Source: an uncultured Bacteroidales bacterium (GTDB taxonomy: Bacteria > Bacteroidota > Bacteroidia > Bacteroidales > VadinHA17). From it: a stretch of 41,810 bases of DNA. This document shows, piece by piece, positions 9,415 to 41,538 of this stretch; the first letter of the stretch is position 1; each line of letters opens with the position of its first letter. The notes under the pieces are model-generated. The model did no database searches, was not told where the DNA came from, and saw only the letters and a program-made list of their open reading frames with translations. The position numbers were made by a program, and so were the translations under genes. The stretch covers positions 1-41,810 of the forward strand of contig CALMRD010000069.1 in NCBI GenBank assembly GCA_937871625.1, read 5' to 3'.

Positions 9415-11796
9415 ATGAAACGAGGATTCTCAATTCTTGTAATGGTTCTTTTAGTTGCCGTTATTGATCTGAGCGGACAGACAGCGCGCAAATATATCAA
9501 GGCCGGGGACGAGTTTGTGCGCAGCGGTATGTTCGAGGATGCCATTGACCAGTTCTCGAGGGCCATAGATGAGGCGCCAGCCTCTGCCGACGGCTATGTC
9601 AGGAGAGCGATGGCTTATGAGCTGACAGGCGATTACGGCCTGGCGTGTGACGACTACAGGAGAGCCGGCAACTTCAAACCCGACGATACCGGAATACTTT
9701 ATAACCTGGCACGCATGTGCAACAGGCTCGGGGCAGAAGAGAAGAGCACCCCGGATGAGAAGGACAAATTCTATTCTGAAGCTGTGTCTTTGTTACAGAA
9801 GGCCATCAGTGCTGAGTACCGCAACGGCAAGCTATACACGGAAAAGGTTGTGTCACTGATAGGTATGGGCCTGTGGGACCAGGCTCTCGGAGCCTCCGAC
9901 ACTGCCCTGCAGATGAGGGACGATGCCCTGAACTACTATTACCAGGGGATCATTTACCAGAAAAAGAGTGATTACAACACTGCCAGGCGGCAGCTTGAAA
10001 AGGCTGTGACCAAGGACAAATCGTTTACCGAGGCCCGCCTCGAGCTGGCCAGGGTACTCGTCCGCCAGGGCGACGTGAACAGTGCACTGGGACAGTGCAA
10101 TATGGTTATGAAGCAGGATGACAGGAATGTTGATGCTTACCTGACAAGAGCAATGGCATATGAAGCCAAGCTCGACTATCCGGCAGCCATCAATGATGTT
10201 TCCACTGCAATACTCCTTGATCCGGCGACGGCCGCCCATTATGTCACCAGGGGCACCTGCTATCAGAAGTTCAACCAGCATCTGGCCGCGGTGAACGATT
10301 TCACCAAGGCACTGGCCATTGACCCCTACATCACGGAGACATACCTGCTGCGTGCCAGGTCTTACGAAGAGATGAACGACTTCGAAAAAGCAGGGGACGA
10401 CTATTCGCGGGTCATCGTCATGAATGAAAGCAACTCGTCGGCAAAGCAGATGCTTAAGGAGGCCAATGAGAGGCTTTTTGCCATCAACCGCGAGACTGTC
10501 AGTCCTGAGATCATGATAGAGTCGCCCACAATCATCTCAGGACGTGAGATAGAGGTCGGTCTTGACAGGGAGAGCGTGCTCATCACCGGCAAGATCACAG
10601 ACAAGAGCATGCTTGCAGAGTTTTCCATCAACAGCCAGCCGGTTGCCTTCGAGGGCAAGGGCACCATTCCCTTCTCGGCGGAGGTGGAGATATCCGAAGA
10701 CGAGATGGTCAGGATCGTTGCCCGCGACATCTACAACAACGAGAGCGCACTTACCTACCATGTAAGGCGCACCGAGGTGGATCCTCCGGAGATAGAGATC
10801 CTCGCGCCTTACCTGGCGGGTGAGAACATGCTGGTGATAGACAGTATCGCCACCCGCATCGATATAGAGGGCAAGATCCTTGACCAGAACATGATCAAGT
10901 CGGTCATGATTGAAAACATCAGCGCGCAGTTCTCGCAGGACAACCTGAACCCGGAGTTCATTGCCAGGGGGGTTGACATCAGGAACAGCGACAAGGTCAC
11001 CATCCTTGTTGAGGACAAGTATGGCAACAGGACCATCAGGGATTTCGCCCTGAACCGCAACGGCACAACCATCTCCGAGTCGAACCCCATGGGAAACACT
11101 CTCGTGGTCTTCATTGAGAACAGCGATTACAGGAACTTCGCCGAACTGCAGGGTCCGCCCAAGGATGCCAGTCTTGTAACTTCAGTCCTGGAGGGCGACT
11201 ACCAGGTGCTGCCTGTGCGCAGGTTAAAGAACCAGACGAAGCAGCAAATGGAAAAGTTCTTTTCCATCGATCTTCGTGATGAGGTCAGGGCCAAAAAGAT
11301 CAAGTCGCTGGTGATATGGTTCGCCGGGCACGGCAAGTTCATCAACGATGTCGGTTACTGGATACCTGTAGATGCCCGCCGCGATGAGGAGTTCACCTAT
11401 TACAGCCTCAACACTCTCAGGGCTTCGATGGAGACCTACATGAACTACCTGACTCACGTCCTGGTCATCACCGATGCCTGTGAATCGGGCCCCAGCTTTT
11501 ACCAGGCCATGAGGTCTGACGTCAAGCCGCGCAACTGTTCCGACTGGAGGGCCACGCAGTTCAAGTCGAGCCAGGTATTCTCATCGGCCGGCTATGAGCT
11601 GGCGGTTGACGACTCGCAGTTCACCCGCACCTTCGTGAACACTCTCAGGGGTAATCCCAACACCTGTATCTCCATCGAGGAGATAGTGATGCAGGTCACA
11701 ATGGCCGTTGCCGGGAACACCCAGCAGAAGCCCAAATTCGGTAAAATTACCGGCCTGAAAGATGAAGACGGCACCTTCTTCTTCGTAAAGAAATAG
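9415..11796 (+). CDS. Secreted TPR-repeat / tandem Ig-like / caspase-family (peptidase C14) protein
   Basis: Signal peptide MKRGFSILVMVLLVAVIDLSGQ, then about 330 aa of TPR-like repeats (AMAYELTGDYGLACDDYRRA, AMAYEAKLDYPAAINDVSTAILLDP, ARSYEEMNDFEKAGDDYSRVI). Two beta-sandwich repeats of about 93 aa follow. The C-terminal caspase fold has His639 in WFAGHGKF (CAC 11329-11331) and Cys689 in ITDACESGPSF (TGT 11479-11481). Confidence 0.8.
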   Translation: MKRGFSILVMVLLVAVIDLSGQTARKYIKAGDEFVRSGMFEDAIDQFSRAIDEAPASADGYVRRAMAYELTGDYGLACDDYRRAGNFKPDDTGILYNLARMCNRLGAEEKSTPDEKDKFYSEAVSLLQKAISAEYRNGKLYTEKVVSLIGMGLWDQALGASDTALQMRDDALNYYYQGIIYQKKSDYNTARRQLEKAVTKDKSFTEARLELARVLVRQGDVNSALGQCNMVMKQDDRNVDAYLTRAMAYEAKLDYPAAINDVSTAILLDPATAAHYVTRGTCYQKFNQHLAAVNDFTKALAIDPYITETYLLRARSYEEMNDFEKAGDDYSRVIVMNESNSSAKQMLKEANERLFAINRETVSPEIMIESPTIISGREIEVGLDRESVLITGKITDKSMLAEFSINSQPVAFEGKGTIPFSAEVEISEDEMVRIVARDIYNNESALTYHVRRTEVDPPEIEILAPYLAGENMLVIDSIATRIDIEGKILDQNMIKSVMIENISAQFSQDNLNPEFIARGVDIRNSDKVTILVEDKYGNRTIRDFALNRNGTTISESNPMGNTLVVFIENSDYRNFAELQGPPKDASLVTSVLEGDYQVLPVRRLKNQTKQQMEKFFSIDLRDEVRAKKIKSLVIWFAGHGKFINDVGYWIPVDARRDEEFTYYSLNTLRASMETYMNYLTHVLVITDACESGPSFYQAMRSDVKPRNCSDWRATQFKSSQVFSSAGYELAVDDSQFTRTFVNTLRGNPNTCISIEEIVMQVTMAVAGNTQQKPKFGKITGLKDEDGTFFFVKK

Positions 11797-35105: not shown

Positions 35106-36971
35106 ATGAAAAAGAGTGACACAGCAGTTCTCATGAGCTGCCCGGAAAACAGGCCTGGCAAAAGAAGGTTCTGCCTTAAGGTTTCATTGATTGGTTTTAT
35201 GCTGATAATTCTGTCAGGATTCTTCATGACAGCTCTGTCGCAACCGACCGACATCAGCAAGAAGCTCAAAGGATTTGACCAGTATATGGAAAAGACCCTT
35301 AAGGACTGGAATACACCCGGTGCGTGCGTCGGTATTGTTGTAAAAGACAAGCTTGTCTTTGCAAAGGGATATGGTTACCGGGATTATGGAAAAAAACTGC
35401 CGGTGACTCCCAGTACCCTGTACCAGATTGCTTCAAACACAAAACTATTCACAACCGTAGCATCGGGATTGCTTGTTGAGGAAGCCAAACTGGATTGGGA
35501 TACTCCGGTGAAGAACCTTGTGCCTTCAATAAAATTCTATAATAATGAGCTTGACAACACGGTGACGCTGCGTGACATGCTTGCTCACCGTACGGGTATA
35601 TCAAGGCATGACCTTATCTGGTACAAATCAGATTTCTCGAGAAAAGATCTCTTTGACCGTCTTAAATATCTTGAACCCAGCCAGCCTTTACGGACAGGGT
35701 TTCTATACAACAACCTGATGTACGTCGCCGCAGGATACATTATTGAACTGCAAAGCGGAAAAACATGGGAGCAGTTTGTCCAGGAAAAGATCTTTGATCC
35801 GCTGAAAATGGAGAGGACCTATTTTAAAGTCAGCGATATGGTTGCCGATCCTGATCATGGAGTGCCGTACAATGAAAAACGTGACACAACCATTCTTTAT
35901 GAGATCCCGATTTATGAGGATCAGGCGGCTGTCGGACCTGCCGGATCAATCATCTCAAATATAAATGATATGTCGAAATGGCTTATCGCGCTGATGAATG
36001 GCGGCAGGTATGAGGGCAAGCAGATCATTCCTGAGGCAGTTTTGAAAGCCACGCTGGCACCTTCGATCGCGTTGCCCAACACAGGGCTCGAGAACAAGGG
36101 GTACAAGGAGATTCTGAACAGTGTATACGGTATGGGCAGGCAGATGGCCTCCTACAGGGGCCACCTGCTTGCATTTCACGGAGGGGATCTTCCCGGCTTT
36201 CACTCTCAGATATCGATGATGCCCACAGACAGTATCGGCGTGATCGTGTTTATCATCGGAGACCAGGGCCAGCCTTTATATAACACAATAACCTATAATG
36301 TCTATGAACGCCTTTTAGGTATGGATCTGACGCCCTGGAGCGAGAGGAACCTTGCTGATCGTGACAAGGGAAAGGCTGTCGGCAGGGAAGGGAGGAGCAA
36401 AGCCGGTGAAGACAGGGTTGCAGGTGCAGGACCTTCTCACAAGCTGGCTGATTATGCGGGCGAGTTCGAGCACCCGGCTTACGGGATAATGAAAATCAGT
36501 CTAAAGGCGCCGGATTCTCTGCAATTTGATTTTCATAATATAGTGCTTCCTCTTTCGCACTATCATTATGACCGTTTTGATACGCCAAATGATGAGGAGT
36601 ACGGATTATGGTCGCTGAACTTCATGACCAACCCGGCTGGTGAAATCAGCGGGTTCGTTGTATCTGTTGATGAGGGGCAGGTGACCTTTACCAGAAGGGC
36701 TGACCCCGGCCTCAGCGACCCTGTTGTCCTGCAGGCTTATGAGGGCAAGTATCTCATGGGAGGGACGACATTCACCATCGAGGTAACAGGTAGTGAGATT
36801 TTTATAATCTTACCCGGCACACCGCGTATCAAGCTCATACCTGTCTCAAGAGACACCTTCCGGATAAAGGAATTTGCTGACGTCAGTATCATCTTTGTCC
36901 GTGAGGATGGCATTGTCACCGGGATGAAGCAGAAGGATCCGTCTGGTGAATATGCGGCAAAGAAGCAATAG
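35106..36971 (+). CDS. Serine hydrolase of the beta-lactamase/PBP (class C-like) family with C-terminal beta-rich domain
   Basis: SxxK motif in YQIASNTKLFT and a YxN-like YNN (FLYNNLMY). Has an N-terminal TM/signal (LIGFMLIILSGFFMTALSQP) and a C-terminal extension of about 150 aa. Confidence 0.8.
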   Translation: MKKSDTAVLMSCPENRPGKRRFCLKVSLIGFMLIILSGFFMTALSQPTDISKKLKGFDQYMEKTLKDWNTPGACVGIVVKDKLVFAKGYGYRDYGKKLPVTPSTLYQIASNTKLFTTVASGLLVEEAKLDWDTPVKNLVPSIKFYNNELDNTVTLRDMLAHRTGISRHDLIWYKSDFSRKDLFDRLKYLEPSQPLRTGFLYNNLMYVAAGYIIELQSGKTWEQFVQEKIFDPLKMERTYFKVSDMVADPDHGVPYNEKRDTTILYEIPIYEDQAAVGPAGSIISNINDMSKWLIALMNGGRYEGKQIIPEAVLKATLAPSIALPNTGLENKGYKEILNSVYGMGRQMASYRGHLLAFHGGDLPGFHSQISMMPTDSIGVIVFIIGDQGQPLYNTITYNVYERLLGMDLTPWSERNLADRDKGKAVGREGRSKAGEDRVAGAGPSHKLADYAGEFEHPAYGIMKISLKAPDSLQFDFHNIVLPLSHYHYDRFDTPNDEEYGLWSLNFMTNPAGEISGFVVSVDEGQVTFTRRADPGLSDPVVLQAYEGKYLMGGTTFTIEVTGSEIFIILPGTPRIKLIPVSRDTFRIKEFADVSIIFVREDGIVTGMKQKDPSGEYAAKKQ

Positions 36972-37134: not shown

Positions 37135-37142
37135 TAAATTTG
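37135..37142 (+). promoter_or_regulatory. -7 promoter element TAAATTTG ahead of the HTH gene / GG-peptide locus
   Basis: Matches TAnnTTTG, 28 nt upstream of ATG 37170. It lies inside the TTG-initiated extension of track ORF 37140-37415. Confidence 0.45.
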
Positions 37143-37169
37143 AGATGCTGCATTTTTAAAACTATTCAC

Positions 37170-37415
37170 ATGTCGTTGTCCAAGTACATTGCACGATTGC
37201 AACGGATGGATCTACTAATTGCCTTGAAGGCAACCGGTTCCCCGGAAGCATTTGCCAATAAGATGAACCTCAGCCGAAGCACTCTTTTTGAGACGCTTCA
37301 GGAGATGAAAGGAATGGGTGTTGATATCAGGTATTCCAACATCAGGGAGACATATTATTATGGCGATGCCAGGCGAATAATAGTCAGGGTTGAGAAAGCC
37401 GGTGAGAAACAATGA
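37170..37415 (+). CDS. Small helix-turn-helix protein (putative locus regulator)
   Basis: 81 aa from the first ATG (MSLSKYIARLQRMDLLIALKATGSPEAFANKMNLSRSTLFETLQEMKGMG). Winged-HTH-like pattern with recognition helix LSRSTLFETL. Confidence 0.6.
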   Translation: MSLSKYIARLQRMDLLIALKATGSPEAFANKMNLSRSTLFETLQEMKGMGVDIRYSNIRETYYYGDARRIIVRVEKAGEKQ

Positions 37416-37500: not shown

Positions 37501-38157
37501 ATGGTAGAACGACTCTTGTCACTTAAAGGCTGGAAGCTATTTGGCGGAATAGTATTGGTAAATCTGCTCATTCTGTTTTTATCCCAGACAACTCTGATTA
37601 ACGAGATAGTATTCTTCAATACTTACAGTGAACAGCTTACATACGACAGAGCTATGGAGGTATTCAGCCAGATGCGCTCTTTCTCATGGGTCAGTTACAT
37701 CATTGCTCCTATACTTCTACTGCTCAAATTCTCAGTGATGAGTGTACTTCTCTATATCGGGATATTCTTCAGTGACCTTCATAAAGAGATTACCCTGGGG
37801 AAGATATTTAAAGTGGTGATTGCTAGTGAACTGGTGTTTATTGTTGCCTCAATTGTTAAACTATTGTGGTTCATCTTTTTTGCGGGCAACTACACTCTGG
37901 AAGATATGAGCTTCTTCTATCCGCTCTCGTTGATTAATCTGTTTAGCCGGTCGGAGGTAGCCGCTTATTGGATATATCCTCTGCAAACAGTGAATTTTTT
38001 CCAGTTGATTTATATCGTTATGCTTGCACTGGGGCTGTCTAAAATCAGTACAATTAGAAAGGAGGCTGCTGACAAAATTGTGCTTTCCACTTATGTCCCG
38101 GCCATGGCGGTCTGGATTGCACTGGTAATGTTTCTTTCAATTGATGTACAGGCATGA
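37501..38157 (+). CDS. Polytopic membrane protein, Cys-free, family not recognised (Yip1-like topology)
   Basis: 218 aa with about 5-6 hydrophobic helices and no cysteine. Its stop overlaps the next start (ATGA 38154-38157). Confidence 0.65.
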   Translation: MVERLLSLKGWKLFGGIVLVNLLILFLSQTTLINEIVFFNTYSEQLTYDRAMEVFSQMRSFSWVSYIIAPILLLLKFSVMSVLLYIGIFFSDLHKEITLGKIFKVVIASELVFIVASIVKLLWFIFFAGNYTLEDMSFFYPLSLINLFSRSEVAAYWIYPLQTVNFFQLIYIVMLALGLSKISTIRKEAADKIVLSTYVPAMAVWIALVMFLSIDVQA

Positions 38158-38681
38158 AAAAACGGATTGGCAAGGTTTTGCTTGTATTGGTGGGAGGATT
38201 TCTGATCTTTCTTATAGCTGGCATAGTGATAAGAAAAGTAAAAGGGGAGCAAGCTGCTGAGAAAATAAGAACTCTTCCCGTACTTGCTATGAAAGATATC
38301 TGGGGAAATTCCTTCACGACTGAAAAGATACCCTCCGGGCCTCTGTTAATCACCTTTTTCCATCCGGAGTGTGACCACTGCAAATATGAAATATCGTCAC
38401 TTATTAGCACTGATTTGATTGACAGCCAGTTAGCAATACTACTTGTTAGCTATGCTAAGGTTGATGATATTCAGTCTTTTATACAAGAAGTTGGGAATAT
38501 TGATGCATTAAACATGCATATCCTGCATGATCCTGATTTCAGGATGAGTGATCTGTACAGAGCCGACATCCTTCCGTCAAACTTCATTTACAATAAGGAG
38601 CTTAAGCTTGTAAAAGTATTCAAGGGGGCAACCAAGCCGGAGACCATCATGAAATACCTGAATGGGAATGATAAAGATTAA
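38154..38681 (+). CDS. Membrane-anchored thioredoxin-fold thiol:disulfide oxidoreductase (TlpA/redoxin-like, CDHC active site)
   Basis: N-terminal TM VLLVLVGGFLIFLIAGIVI, then a redoxin core with LLITFFHPECDHCKYE (CxxC). 175 aa. Confidence 0.8.
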   Translation: MKKRIGKVLLVLVGGFLIFLIAGIVIRKVKGEQAAEKIRTLPVLAMKDIWGNSFTTEKIPSGPLLITFFHPECDHCKYEISSLISTDLIDSQLAILLVSYAKVDDIQSFIQEVGNIDALNMHILHDPDFRMSDLYRADILPSNFIYNKELKLVKVFKGATKPETIMKYLNGNDKD

Positions 38682-40854
38682 GAGGGTTAAAGAAGCATCA
38701 TTGCTTCAGCACGACTCCACCGATTGTGGTGCGGCTTGTCTGGCATCTGTAATCAGGTATTTCGGCGGAGAGTCCGGAATAGAAAAAATTCGCAGGCTTA
38801 GTGGTACAACTCAGTCAGGAACTACGATGCTGGGATTATATCAGGCTGCACGCGAATCTGGTATGGAGGCTACTGGTTATGAGGCTTCCGTGAATGATAT
38901 TAAGGAATTCAATGGTATTCTAATTCTGCATGTGACTCCGGAACCTGGATATGAGCATTATATCGTCTCTTATGGTTTCTATGATGGCAGGTTTGTCGTC
39001 TGGGATCCTGCAAAAGGTTTGGAGTTAAAGACAGCATCGGAAGTTGAAAAGATTTGGGCGAGTCATAAATGTCTTGCAGTCAGTCCGGGCAAAGATTTTG
39101 TCCTGGAGAAAGTATCAAAAAGAAGTAAACGCAGGTGGATAGTTGATACAATTATGCCGGAGTACGAATTACTCCTGGTCAGTGTTGTCGTAGGTATAGT
39201 CATTTCACTGCTCGGTGTTGTAATGGCAGTCTATACGCAAAAGTTACTTGACCGGATTCTCCCTTCAGGTGATGTGAGAATGCTTGTTGTTTCAGTGGCA
39301 TTGGTGTTTCTGCTTCTTGGGGTTAGGGTTCTGCTGACTGCAGTCCGACAATCCATGTTATTGTCTCAGGGAAAGACTTACAACATCCGTGTTGTTGACG
39401 GATTTTACAGTTCATTGCTGGGATTGCCGAAGCCGTTTTTTGATACCAGAAAAACCGGCGACATGGTTGCCCGACTTAACGACACCATGCGAATCCAGCG
39501 TGTCATCTCCGACGTGGTCAGCACCTATGTGATCGATTTTCTGATTGTGATGATTACAATGGTCATGATCTTCATTTATTCTTCTGTTGCAGGCATTATT
39601 TCAGCTTTAGCAATTCCTCTCTTTTTTCTGCTGGTTTACAGTTGGAACAAGCCGGTTATCAAATCGCAGCAGGACCTCATGGCAGGTTATGCCATGAATG
39701 AAAGCAATTTCATAAATACTCTCAGGGGCATTACGGAGATCAAGAGCATGCAATGGCAGCGTTATTATGAGAAAAAAAATAAATCGGTATTCACTATTTT
39801 TCAGGAGAGGGCTTTCTCATTGGGGAAGATCAAAATAAAGCTTGGGATGATTACAAACCTTGCAGGCACTCTATACCTGATGGGGTTATTAATGTACACT
39901 TCGCTTGAGGTAATGGAGATGCGGATGACTCAGGGCGAACTGATGGCTATCATTTCACTTAGCTCTGCCCTGCTGCCGTCAGTGATGAACCTGGCTCTCG
40001 TCTCCATTCCTCTGAGCGAGGCTAAGGTCGCTATCGAAAGAATGTTTGAATTCACGCAGTTACAGCCGGAAGAGCCTGATGAAAAAACAGAAAAGCCAGG
40101 ATTACCTTTTTCCCGGATTACACTTGACAGCATTACCTTTCGGTTCCCCGGTCAGAAGTTACTTCTTTCTGATGTGAACCTTGAGATTGAAAAAGGTACT
40201 GCAACTGCTTTGGTAGGGGAGTCGGGTTCGGGTAAGAGTACTCTGGTAAACATTCTGATGAGATTTTACCAGCCGGAGTCAGGCTCTGTAAAGGTTAATG
40301 ATGAGACGCCTTGTCAGGATGTGCCGCTCGATTGCTGGCGAAGGTCGATAGGTCTGATTCCACAGGAAATTCATCTTTTCAATGGCACAGTATTGGAGAA
40401 TGTTGTACCTGATGCTGATGAGGATAAAATCAGGAAGTTGGGCAGTCTGATCATTGAATACGGGCTTGAGCCTTTCATAAAAAGCCTGCCCCTGGGTTTT
40501 GCTACCTTAACTGGCGAAGATGGTGTCAAATTATCTGGCGGGCAAAAGCAGGTTATTGCATTCATGAGGGCCTTGATCAATGATCCGGAAATTCTTCTTA
40601 TTGATGAAGGCACCTCCGGGATGGACCGGGACACGGAAGCTATTTTTCTCAAGATTCTGATGCGATTGAAAGGATCTATTGGCATATTGTTGGTTACCCA
40701 CCGGATAAATATTATAAGAAAGTTATGTGACAGGGTTTACCTGCTTGAGGGAGGTGCTATTTCAGACTCAGGCACGCATAATGAGCTTTTAATGAATGAT
40801 AACCTCTACAGAAGATATTGGGAGGAATTTGATTTGGCGGGGGCGATCAGATGA
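38662..40854 (+). CDS. Peptidase-C39-domain ABC transporter (PCAT; double-glycine leader processing exporter)
   Basis: C39 catalytic Cys in LQHDSTDCGAACLASV, with a His/Asp region (EHYIVSYG ... VWDP). Six-TM ABC membrane domain. Walker A GESGSGKST, signature LSGGQKQ, Walker B ILLIDE, H-loop LVTHR. Overlaps the previous gene by 20 nt. Confidence 0.92.
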   Translation: MGMIKIKRVKEASLLQHDSTDCGAACLASVIRYFGGESGIEKIRRLSGTTQSGTTMLGLYQAARESGMEATGYEASVNDIKEFNGILILHVTPEPGYEHYIVSYGFYDGRFVVWDPAKGLELKTASEVEKIWASHKCLAVSPGKDFVLEKVSKRSKRRWIVDTIMPEYELLLVSVVVGIVISLLGVVMAVYTQKLLDRILPSGDVRMLVVSVALVFLLLGVRVLLTAVRQSMLLSQGKTYNIRVVDGFYSSLLGLPKPFFDTRKTGDMVARLNDTMRIQRVISDVVSTYVIDFLIVMITMVMIFIYSSVAGIISALAIPLFFLLVYSWNKPVIKSQQDLMAGYAMNESNFINTLRGITEIKSMQWQRYYEKKNKSVFTIFQERAFSLGKIKIKLGMITNLAGTLYLMGLLMYTSLEVMEMRMTQGELMAIISLSSALLPSVMNLALVSIPLSEAKVAIERMFEFTQLQPEEPDEKTEKPGLPFSRITLDSITFRFPGQKLLLSDVNLEIEKGTATALVGESGSGKSTLVNILMRFYQPESGSVKVNDETPCQDVPLDCWRRSIGLIPQEIHLFNGTVLENVVPDADEDKIRKLGSLIIEYGLEPFIKSLPLGFATLTGEDGVKLSGGQKQVIAFMRALINDPEILLIDEGTSGMDRDTEAIFLKILMRLKGSIGILLVTHRINIIRKLCDRVYLLEGGAISDSGTHNELLMNDNLYRRYWEEFDLAGAIR

Positions 40855-41052
40855 TGGGTTTGCCGTCACTCTGTGGAACGGCAAGAGGTAATGAAAAAAA
40901 AAGAGATGAGGTCAAAAAAACTACACCAATCCTGTATTATTGGACTGCCCGGTTTTTATTTTGAAAGTGCCGACCGGTTTTCGAAACCATCGTCGGCAGG
41001 CCGATACCGAAAAGCCTGAAATAGAGTAGGTGTAAGAAAAACATGTCTCGCT

Positions 41053-41268
41053 ATGAAAGAATTAAACTTTGACCAGATGGAGGTTACTAATGGAGGTTCA
41101 GTTATCAAAGTCGTGGGATGTACGATAGGATCGATCCTTCTTGTTTCTGCTTTTGCATCTTTGTTTGCCCTTACGGCAGGAGCCGGAGCAATAGCTATTG
41201 CAGCTGCTGCTACTGGAGCATCACTTAGTCCTGCTGGTTGGGGGCTTGCTTGTTTTACGCAATATTGA
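41053..41268 (+). CDS. Double-glycine-leader precursor peptide (bacteriocin-like); predicted cleavage after Gly15 gives a 56-aa hydrophobic core
   Basis: MKELNFDQMEVTNGG|SVIKVVGCTIGSILLVSAFASLFALTAGAGAIAIAAAATGASLSPAGWGLACFTQY. The leader fits the CFB-type LNxxQMxxIxGG pattern. Lies directly downstream of the PCAT gene on the same strand. Confidence 0.75.
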   Translation: MKELNFDQMEVTNGGSVIKVVGCTIGSILLVSAFASLFALTAGAGAIAIAAAATGASLSPAGWGLACFTQY

Positions 41269-41313: not shown

Positions 41314-41538
41314 ATGAATAAATTGTTAAGAAGGGACGTACTAAGTATAGCCTTTATTCTGAGCCTGATTGTTTTTGGAGTATCGATTGTGGTATCTGCA
41401 GCCTATGATCTATCTCCAAAAGGCAGGCTGGTATTCTTAATAATCACGATCGCCTCTTTCTTTTCAAGCCTTTCCTCAATTCTGCAGTTAAGAGCAAGAA
41501 GACAGAGATTCGACAGTGAAGAAAAAGCTAGACCATAA
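41314..41538 (+). CDS. 74-aa two-TM mini-protein (candidate immunity protein)
   Basis: Two hydrophobic helices (LSIAFILSLIVFGVSIVVSAA, LVFLIITIASFFSSLSSIL) and a basic C-terminal tail. Lies 45 nt downstream of the precursor gene. Confidence 0.55.
   Translation: MNKLLRRDVLSIAFILSLIVFGVSIVVSAAYDLSPKGRLVFLIITIASFFSSLSSILQLRARRQRFDSEEKARP

Follow-up and report, generated by a model that had tools for sequence, protein, structure and literature searches.

The peptide gene

The subject of this analysis is a small open reading frame (ORF) of an uncultured Bacteroidales bacterium (assembly GCA_937871625.1, contig CALMRD010000069.1), located at positions 41053 to 41268 of the 41,810 nucleotides that were analysed as a whole and are called the window here. 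A sequence-only reading had described this ORF as the precursor of a double-glycine (GG) leader peptide with an Ala/Gly-rich core and two cysteines. Its parts are the following.

41053..41268, + strand: peptide ORF, 71 amino acids, MKELNFDQMEVTNGG followed by SVIKVVGCTIGSILLVSAFASLFALTAGAGAIAIAAAATGASLSPAGWGLACFTQY
41053..41097, + strand: double-glycine leader, 15 amino acids, MKELNFDQMEVTNGG; family consensus MKxLxxEQMExVNGG
41098..41268, + strand: hydrophobic core and stop codon, 56 amino acids; turn at about T26-A31

When the sequence was re-read, the ORF, the 15-residue leader, the GG site, the Ala/Gly-rich core and the two Cys were all found as described. The predicted junction lies between GG and S, with G15 encoded by codon 41095-41097 and S16 by codon 41098-41100. 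The precursor was compared with the pattern of a GG leader (a short leader ending in GG, with hydrophobic residues at -4, -7, -12 and -15) and follows it, with GG at -2/-1, L at -12 and M at both -7 and -15; at the canonically hydrophobic position -4 the family consensus has Val and the window copy Thr.

The core contains 14 Ala and 7 Gly (38% of its residues) together with 6 Ser and 4 Thr, and its grand average of hydropathy (GRAVY) is 1.41. It has exactly two Cys, Cys8 (41119-41121) and Cys52 (41251-41253). Lys4 is the sole charged residue, giving a net charge of +1 with no D, E, R or H, so that the single charge noted earlier stands for the window copy; it does not extend to the family, as homologues mostly carry Asp or Glu at core position 55. 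A full-text literature search with the sequence motifs of the peptide returned nothing relevant. The gene was apparently left uncalled in the annotation of the source record; the exact 71-residue peptide is absent from a collection of 15 billion proteins, in which the neighbouring 74-residue ORF of the same contig is present.

Conservation and selection

Homologues of the peptide were searched for among 5.8 billion protein clusters, revealing 29 clusters (90% identity level) that are 65-97% identical to it and nearly all exactly 71 residues long. A profile search of 1.84 billion representatives matched just 18 clusters, and the family is therefore small. The genome matches were all to metagenome-assembled genomes (MAGs) of uncultured Bacteroidales or Bacteroidia. 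The peptide is thus a new, small sequence family in uncultured Bacteroidales.

Among 39 aligned sequences, the most distant of them 27% identical, Cys8 and Cys52 were the sole invariant columns of the core, with T26, G28 (at the turn) and P45 near-invariant; in the leader, G15 is invariant and G14 at least 90% conserved. A lack of Cys conservation had been named beforehand as one result that would count against the sequence-only reading, and both residues are present in all 39 sequences.

The codons were compared with those of three homologous loci (L001, L004 and L011; loci are numbered in this way throughout). The ratio of non-synonymous to synonymous change (dN/dS) was 0.04-0.10, with a synonymous divergence (pS) of ~0.7, that is, near saturation. 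The non-synonymous divergence (pN) was 0.03-0.16 in the core and 0.18-0.34 in the leader, the core being more constrained and the leader diverging faster. A short ORF that belongs to no protein family and was uncalled in the source record might be a chance intergenic reading frame. The homologues of equal length, the conserved leader and Cys, and a 5′ leader element at a fixed distance from the ATG all speak against this, and the low dN/dS at saturated synonymous sites led to its rejection, leaving it a negligible probability. The ORF is a real gene under purifying selection.

One protein found in the representative search (P0041, 198 residues) has the core domain fused to a 147-residue N-terminal region that replaces the GG leader. 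It is devoid of the C-terminal Cys, and may be a mis-called ORF or a genuine fusion.

The upstream cassette

Four genes on the same strand precede the peptide gene, among them that of a peptidase-containing ABC transporter (PCAT) and that of a thioredoxin (Trx)-fold protein.

37140..37415, + strand: small helix-turn-helix (HTH)-type regulator gene, with a weak Pfam match to HTH_11 (E 0.009) and a weak match to the N-terminus of BirA
37501..38157, + strand: TM218, 218 amino acids, five transmembrane (TM) segments predicted by hydropathy, zero Cys
38154..38681, + strand: membrane-anchored TlpA/ResA-like thioredoxin-fold protein, N-terminal TM helix at residues 8-26
38662..40854, + strand: PCAT, 730 amino acids, with C39 double-glycine peptidase, TM and ATPase domains

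The transporter matched the Pfam families Peptidase_C39 (1.2e-25), ABC_membrane (6e-31) and ABC_tran (4.6e-29), as well as TIGR01193 (2e-110; 370 bits, under the curated cutoff of 524), and over its full length PCAT1 (4ry2, E 9.6e-103). Its motifs DCGAACL, EHYIV and WDPAKG align to the catalytic Cys, His and Asp regions of PCAT1. The peptide gene is thus accompanied, as expected for the substrate of a GG-leader PCAT, by a nearby exporter with a C39 domain in which the contexts of the catalytic residues are intact. The PCAT gene ends 198 nucleotides upstream of the peptide and its start overlaps the Trx gene by 20 nucleotides.

The Trx protein was matched to Pfam AhpC-TSA (1.5e-8), NCBIfam ResA (4.5e-7) and, in the PDB, 2l5o and ResA (2.5e-6 to 7e-6). 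It has one TM segment with a K/R-rich N-terminus and two Cys only, which form the motif CDHC at residues 73-76; among loci this motif is conserved as CDHC, CEHC, CEYC or CQFC, mostly C-x-H-C. The C-x-H-C motif resembles the CPHC of DsbA and the CGHC of PDI. The sequence-only reading had placed the thioredoxin adjacent to the peptide, which proved incorrect: it belongs to the same gene cluster and lies two genes upstream, with the 2.2-kb exporter gene in between.

No family of Pfam or NCBIfam was found for TM218. It has 443 homologue clusters and always lies directly upstream of Trx and PCAT genes, and in the window its stop codon overlaps the Trx start (ATGA). By analogy, TM218 corresponds to the unknown five-TM protein of bacteroidetocin loci. 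According to Coyne et al. (2019, PMC6671954), a bacteroidetocin region has four genes, which encode the peptide itself, a five-TM protein, an ABC transporter with a GG peptidase and a thiol oxidoreductase. With these four genes E. coli can produce the toxin; each of the three genes that were tested was needed, and the activity of the toxin depends on the five-TM protein.

The true start of the HTH gene is probably the ATG at 37170 (MSLSKYIARLQRMD...). This gene is syntenic and 75-85% identical in L001, L004, L011, L017 and L020, and is found beside other cassettes too. The whole block is syntenic in many metagenome contigs, where it lies between mutL/flavodoxin and a TonB-receptor cluster. Among the window ORFs from 33.5 to 41.8 kb, no HlyD/membrane-fusion protein (MFP) or outer-membrane-factor gene was detected.

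Upstream of the HTH gene, a gene for a 621-residue protein of the serine beta-lactamase family with DUF3471 (35106-36971, + strand) follows a conserved gene for a 146-residue lipoprotein. In syntenic loci, the lipoprotein-HTH junction is empty (L001, L004) or occupied by a DDE transposase (L017-L019), so that it seems to be an insertion hot spot.

Cargo exchange and the thioredoxin

In close relatives (L017-L019, L020), a cassette ~70% identical to that of the window carries unrelated GG-leader cargo, and the small gene downstream is different or missing. Many more cassettes with swapped cargo were found in metagenomes. Such an exchange of cargo along with differing downstream genes is typical of bacteriocin loci. 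Cassettes with different, unrelated hydrophobic cargos, all of at least two Cys, were located in L017-L019 (~10563-10820), L020 (10533-10736), L028, L045/L056, L046, L069, L080, L084/L090, L095 and L105.

The presence of the thioredoxin was then set against the Cys content of the cargo. Two or more Cys were present in 10 of 10 cargo families behind Trx-containing cassettes (L084/L090 being an eleventh), compared to none of five behind Trx-less PCATs (Fisher P = 3.3e-4, indicative only, as the families are phylogenetically non-independent). The cargos of Trx-less PCATs with zero Cys were those of L015, L048, L089 and L110, and these PCATs are distant. The proposal that the locus thioredoxin is a candidate for making the Cys bond gains in plausibility from this comparison of sequences.

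The same order of TM, redoxin and PCAT genes was found on a plasmid of Flammeovirga pectinis, of the class Cytophagia (L021; NZ_CP034564.1, 6001-12642), with identities of 24%, 27% and 35%, respectively. The cargo there is a peptide of 51 residues, MKKLTFNQMGKINGG followed by GTC...NMVC, with one of its two Cys at core position 3 and the other at the very C-terminus. Downstream of it lie genes for a GLPGLI-family protein, a LanC-family protein and a glycosyltransferase, a hint that further modification may take place in some cargos of such cassettes. The UniRef name 'Yip1 domain' given to the Flammeovirga TM protein was rejected as unsupported by Pfam, and a homology search with this protein matched only the query itself.

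These neighbours bear on whether the window peptide could be a ribosomally synthesised and post-translationally modified peptide (RiPP), altered beyond a disulfide by thioether, lanthionine or radical-SAM chemistry on Cys or on Ser/Thr. The 6 Ser and 4 Thr of the core, besides its two Cys, would provide sites for such chemistry, and the LanC-family and glycosyltransferase genes lie downstream of an analogous cassette. However, apart from the thioredoxin no modifying enzyme was found at the window locus or at its syntenic counterparts, peptide-imm74 pairs located away from an exporter (see below) are likewise devoid of modifying genes, and invariance in the core is limited to the two Cys. A RiPP precursor is therefore considered improbable.

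Predicted structure

The core alone, modelled with AlphaFold from the alignment of 39 sequences, gave a predicted local distance difference test (pLDDT) score of 73.1, with helices at residues 2-29 and 32-53 and a break at G30-A31. A Foldseek search of the PDB with this model found nothing significant (best E 6.9). Only two superpositions were obtained, with ATP synthase subunit c and cytochrome bo3 subunit IV (CyoD) (TMq 0.63, 55-56 columns); both are antiparallel TM hairpins and were used just to check the geometry of the hairpin. As the predicted hairpin sets residue 8 opposite residues 52-54, a Cys8-Cys52 disulfide that clamps its open end is geometrically plausible. The earlier suggestion that a single disulfide would nearly close the ends of the peptide is consistent with this model, in which Cys8 faces Cys52, and with the invariance of both residues.

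By contrast, the small-xxx-small runs emphasised by the sequence-only reading do not exceed expectation, since 14 were counted against 11.9 +/- 1.9 in composition-matched shuffles (P = 0.19), and composition thus explains them. With the motif unenriched and one GG-leader ORF only at the locus, the likeness to class IIb helix-packing peptides was dropped, and a class IIb two-peptide bacteriocin was rejected.

A hydrophobic hairpin could also be retained in the inner membrane of its producer as a partner of imm74 or of the five-TM protein, the PCAT acting as an insertase or maturase. The extreme hydrophobicity of the core with its two TM-length helices fits this explanation, as do the closest structural look-alikes, which are integral-membrane hairpin subunits, and the lack of a nearby outer-membrane export component; moreover, a core conserved above its leader is unusual among diversifying toxins. 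However, a housekeeping subunit would hardly be expected in a cassette that carries unrelated cargo families in close relatives, most Bacteroidales lack the locus and the family has few members, and the published four-gene systems release a toxic product. A retained hairpin is accordingly held to be unlikely, at roughly one chance in eight.

The downstream gene imm74

The gene that follows the peptide was named imm74.

41314..41538, + strand: imm74, 74 amino acids, two TM segments, basic N- and C-termini

No significant family was found for imm74 in Pfam and NCBIfam. It follows the peptide by 45-70 nucleotides in every locus with available downstream sequence, and the pair is also present in three contexts without a nearby exporter (L008-L010, L014 and L015), whereas imm74 is missing where the cargo differs (L017-L020). 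Its pN/pS of 0.32-0.46 indicates purifying selection, yet with faster evolution than that of the peptide. A function as the immunity protein of the producer is likely.

On a complete MAG chromosome (OY970276.1, L015), the peptide homologue (10001-10192) has a TTA-to-TAA nonsense codon, and the partner ORF (10264-10470; 68 residues, two TM segments) is intact. This looks like the pattern expected of a retained immunity gene, though the case stands alone and the codon might result from a sequencing error.

The 5′ leader and the DUF805b motif

Even where the peptides of two loci are only 48% identical, the non-coding DNA before the peptide gene is conserved. It contains the following elements.

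40928..40964, + strand: promoter-like block composed of AATCCTGTATTATTGGACT, an imperfect inverted repeat at 40928-40946 with the consensus AGTCCGGTATTATTGGACT, and then TTTTTATTTTGA
40969..40997, + strand: predicted 5′ RNA hairpin, GCCGACCGG...CGTCGGC; dG -12.8 kcal/mol, z -2.75
40997..41032, + strand: Rfam RF02914 DUF805b motif, 40.2 bits against a gathering score of 35.6, E 1.1e-9

The promoter-like block is conserved in an alignment of 10 loci, exporter-less ones included, and in 33 GG-peptide loci. The element TTTTTATTTTGA resembles the Bacteroidetes -7 box, and the block may function as a promoter. A scan for sigma-70 promoters and terminators gave nothing informative, and a position-specific search upstream of the 124 DUF805b instances listed detected a weak cluster of -7-like boxes ~40 nucleotides upstream.

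An equivalent of the hairpin folds in all 26 loci tested, with a median of 10 bp and a mean z of -2.9 relative to shuffles (Wilcoxon P 3e-8). These values come from per-sequence folding against shuffles, which replaced RNAalifold because the latter recovered the base of the stem only, the arms varying in length. The inner-stem sequences vary between loci and include G.U pairs on the + strand, and this conservation of structure with varying sequence favours an element that acts at the RNA level. The hairpin probably forms the 5′ end of the transcript, as a T-rich TTTG element lies 5-8 nucleotides upstream of it; transcription is accordingly predicted to start at about 40968-40971. The 4-bp stem of the DUF805b motif is invariant in all copies, and hence carries no covariation evidence.

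RF02914 is what we take to be an orphan candidate cis-regulator, named for downstream DUF805 genes. A full-text literature search for DUF805b found nothing relevant beyond its listing. At the window locus the motif ends 20 nucleotides before the start codon of the peptide, and elsewhere it precedes both homologues of the peptide and unrelated GG-leader genes (L004, L008 with two copies, L011-L016, L020 and L021). Copies were located at L004 7947-7981, L008 3760-3794 and 5663-5697(-), L012 9946-9980, L014 1940-1974, L020 10480-10514 and L021 9307-9341, in two classes of Bacteroidota and before several unrelated core families.

A scan of metagenomes revealed at least 125 instances, and 110 of the matches listed were usable; the following counts refer to these. 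The spacing from motif to ATG was mostly 18-27 nucleotides. Small GG-leader ORFs followed 42 of the 110 instances (38%), and 23 of these 42 had the same type of 15-residue leader; the 20 genuine unique peptides among them (the false positive L066 excluded) all have at least two Cys. Lipoprotein-like genes followed 22 of the 110 and true DUF805 proteins 3. Apart from these, tandem copies were found in L081 (three within 1,079 bp) and L043, each before a peptide of an odd type, ~60 residues long, in which a long GG leader is joined to a core of poly-glutamine (e.g. ...DAVRGG followed by RMTASQQQQQQQQQQQQSTPSTPSTPQPPRIR). Very short peptides rich in Cys (e.g. MLTEVYNVNEAASNATAGCCDCFGYGCSCACNNS) follow the motif in L068, L071, L109 and L141, and these may give rise to modified peptides.

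The breadth of this set is relevant to a further explanation, namely that the peptide is exported and processed and has a non-toxic role, in signalling or another extracellular or envelope function, with imm74 as its receptor or partner and the HTH protein as a response regulator. GG-leader/PCAT systems elsewhere export non-toxic peptides, pheromones included; the cassette is closely accompanied by a small HTH regulator; and a DUF805b leader before lipoprotein and other genes suggests a wider regulon rather than a dedicated toxin switch. On the other hand, known diffusible pheromones do not resemble an uncharged core of 56 residues with such a high GRAVY, neither a histidine kinase nor a receptor gene was found in the locus, and the cargo swapping with a small membrane-protein gene, as well as the decayed peptide beside an intact partner in L015, are patterns of toxin and immunity genes. 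A non-toxic exported peptide is thus regarded as unlikely, though slightly ahead of the other alternatives.

Proposed function

Taken as a whole, the ORF is read as probably encoding the precursor of a bacteroidetocin-type class II bacteriocin-like peptide, unmodified and with a GG leader, at odds of somewhat less than two to one. The interpretation given by the sequence-only reading is thereby largely supported. Confidence is high that the peptide is cargo of the PCAT with a disulfide made by the thioredoxin; a toxin with its immunity protein is favoured by a narrower balance.

According to this proposal, the peptide gene would be driven by its own promoter, from which a transcript with a structured leader (the 5′ hairpin and the DUF805b motif) would be made. 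The C39 domain of the upstream PCAT would recognise the 15-residue leader of the 71-residue precursor and cut after Gly15, and the transporter would move the peptide across the inner membrane. There, the anchored, periplasm-facing CDHC thioredoxin could oxidise Cys8 and Cys52, so that a disulfide would staple the open end of a two-helix hydrophobic hairpin (approximately residues 2-29 and 32-53), the ring leaving 7 N-terminal and 4 C-terminal residues free. The uncharged hairpin would most likely act by insertion into the target membrane, unlike the charge-dependent BamA binding of bacteroidetocin A, and the co-inherited two-TM protein of 74 residues would shield the producer. The monoisotopic mass calculated for the core is 5325.82 Da with the disulfide and 5327.83 Da in the reduced state. 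In this scheme the cleavage site, the disulfide, the hairpin fold, the toxicity, the immunity, the target and the route across the outer membrane are inferred.

A number of points weigh against the proposal. TlpA/ResA-type thioredoxins are usually reductants, and the role of an oxidase is assigned to this one by inference. It is hard to see how an uncharged peptide of 56 residues and GRAVY 1.41 would leave a diderm cell or reach its target, and no outer-membrane export component was found within ~8 kb in the window or in syntenic loci. The peptide had no significant family in Pfam (E <= 1) or NCBIfam, and no bacteriocin family among them. The AlphaFold model of the full precursor was poor (pLDDT 57.6) and was not used, and the confidence of the core model is moderate; cleavage, disulfide and killing are predictions. 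When the core was compared by BLASTP with bacteroidetocins A and B (Bd-A and Bd-B), the leader alone aligned (E 0.40), and hhalign of the family profile against Bd-B gave a probability of 3.5%, again in the leader only. The cassette was likened to published bacteroidetocin regions by the types and description of their genes. Finally, the Bd-A and Bd-B peptides are basic and soluble and lack an immunity gene, and therefore the analogy is one of machinery and not of cargo.

A broader interpretation, which we consider possible and clearly less probable than the proposal above, is that the locus represents a large unrecognised class in Bacteroidota of disulfide-stapled, nearly uncharged TM helical hairpins. 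Such peptides would be 'pseudo-cyclic', a terminal Cys pair replacing the peptide-bond closure of circular bacteriocins; a dedicated cassette of five-TM protein, thioredoxin and PCAT would swap modules of cargo plus immunity, with killing by membrane insertion and not through BamA; and the shared leader of 5′ hairpin and DUF805b would co-regulate a regulon of secreted peptides and lipoproteins. If this were true, the orphan DUF805b motif would gain a biological context and provide a handle for unannotated peptide toxins.

Peptide toxins of Bacteroidota are far less studied than those of Firmicutes or E. coli, and only four bacteroidetocins, all soluble and cationic, have been tested so far. 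The locus described here suggests that a known cassette for maturation and export also carries a very hydrophobic two-cysteine cargo, which comes together with an immunity-like partner. Cysteines in the cargo can be predicted from the presence of the thioredoxin, a simple and testable rule on the role of Trx where general disulfide machinery is reportedly missing, and the uncalled peptide gene illustrates how such genes evade annotation. The leader of hairpin and DUF805b is a practical search handle, given the 38% of sampled instances (among the matches listed) that lead to GG-leader ORFs. The general picture of class II bacteriocins is unchanged, with one family and some rules added. Specialists might find use for the rule on Trx and Cys, the exchange of cargo and the link to DUF805b.

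Comparison with known systems

In composition and size, the core recalls the subgroup-ii circular bacteriocins of the gassericin A/acidocin B type, which have ~58 residues and are Ala/Gly-rich, very hydrophobic and nearly uncharged. In circular bacteriocins, however, the termini are closed by a head-to-tail peptide bond made by dedicated machinery, and the leaders are short and not of the GG type, whereas the closure of the window peptide would be a disulfide with 7 + 4 residues left free. A circular bacteriocin was rejected in view of the GG-type leader, the lack of a Pfam match at E <= 1 and the absence of cyclisation or DUF95-type genes.

Pediocin-like class IIa bacteriocins have a dedicated thiol-disulfide oxidoreductase (PedC or another accessory protein), encoded with the PCAT, which ensures correct disulfides. 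The systems thus share a PCAT-linked thioredoxin-like accessory protein for an exported GG-leader peptide. Pediocin-like producers are Gram-positive, and their peptides are cationic, carry a YGNGV box and target the mannose phosphotransferase system; a five-TM protein is not part of these systems.

The class IIa microcins of Enterobacteriaceae (such as microcin V/colicin V, MccV, and microcin L) share with the window locus a diderm producer, a GG leader of 15 residues cut by a PCAT (CvaB), and a hydrophobic, Gly/Ala-rich core of low charge with one disulfide (MccV) or more. A small membrane immunity protein is encoded beside the toxin gene of microcins. In contrast, microcin export needs an MFP and TolC, genes for which are lacking at the window locus, and for their disulfides microcins depend on the general DsbA/B system, with no thioredoxin of their own. 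The disulfide of MccV is local to the C-terminus, whereas the Cys pair of the window peptide brackets nearly all of it. Pfam and NCBIfam scans of the peptide detected no similarity to microcins, and membership of the class IIa microcins was rejected on the absence of MFP/TolC-type export genes (from 33.5 to 41.8 kb in the window and over ~8 kb in syntenic loci).

The closest system is that of bacteroidetocins A-D and their relatives (Coyne et al. 2019, PMC6671954; Matano et al. 2021, PMC8546649). A wider set of 19 bacteroidetocin-like peptides has leaders of 15-16 residues, at least two Cys and ancillary genes nearby, and Bacteroides has been argued to lack general disulfide machinery (PMC6671954). 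A peptide of this kind is not new, given the 4,494 class II bacteriocins that were predicted for Bacteroidota by mining on a large scale. Both systems occur in Bacteroidota and share a 15-residue GG leader of the MK.. type, genes for a five-TM protein, an oxidoreductase and a C39-ABC transporter, and the lack of an outer-membrane export gene. The outer Cys bracket is also alike, the first Cys lying at core position 8 or 9 and the last at the C-terminus or close to it, with Cys 9/17/19/42 in Bd-A, 9/16/18/41 in Bd-B and 8/52 in the window core.

The differences concern mainly the peptide. The window core has 56 residues against 42-48 in bacteroidetocins (42 in Bd-A and Bd-B), and two Cys against four in Bd-A and Bd-B; it is near-uncharged and very hydrophobic, whereas Bd-A (+6) and Bd-B (+2) are charged and soluble. 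Its gene follows that of the exporter and is not placed between the TM and oxidoreductase genes, it is accompanied by a putative two-TM immunity gene, for which there is no counterpart in the producers of Bd-A and Bd-B, and the organism is environmental, while bacteroidetocin producers are from the human gut. Bd-A targets extracellular loop 3 of BamA through an Asp-dependent contact, and binding of this style by the uncharged window peptide is unlikely. Searches by tblastn of Bd-A and Bd-B, with the sequences taken from Supplementary Figure 2 of Coyne et al., against plasmids, and two scans of viral contigs, gave no match. A bacteroidetocin in the strict sense was rejected, as there is no similarity in the core and the peptide differs in its length, its two Cys, its net charge of +1 and its GRAVY. 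In the wider sense, the locus conforms to the operational definition of Coyne et al., with its 15-residue GG leader, two invariant Cys and the combination of TM218, CDHC thioredoxin and PCAT. Since cassette and peptide agree with this definition and the core is dissimilar, the locus is therefore best described as known machinery with a new and physically different family of cargo.

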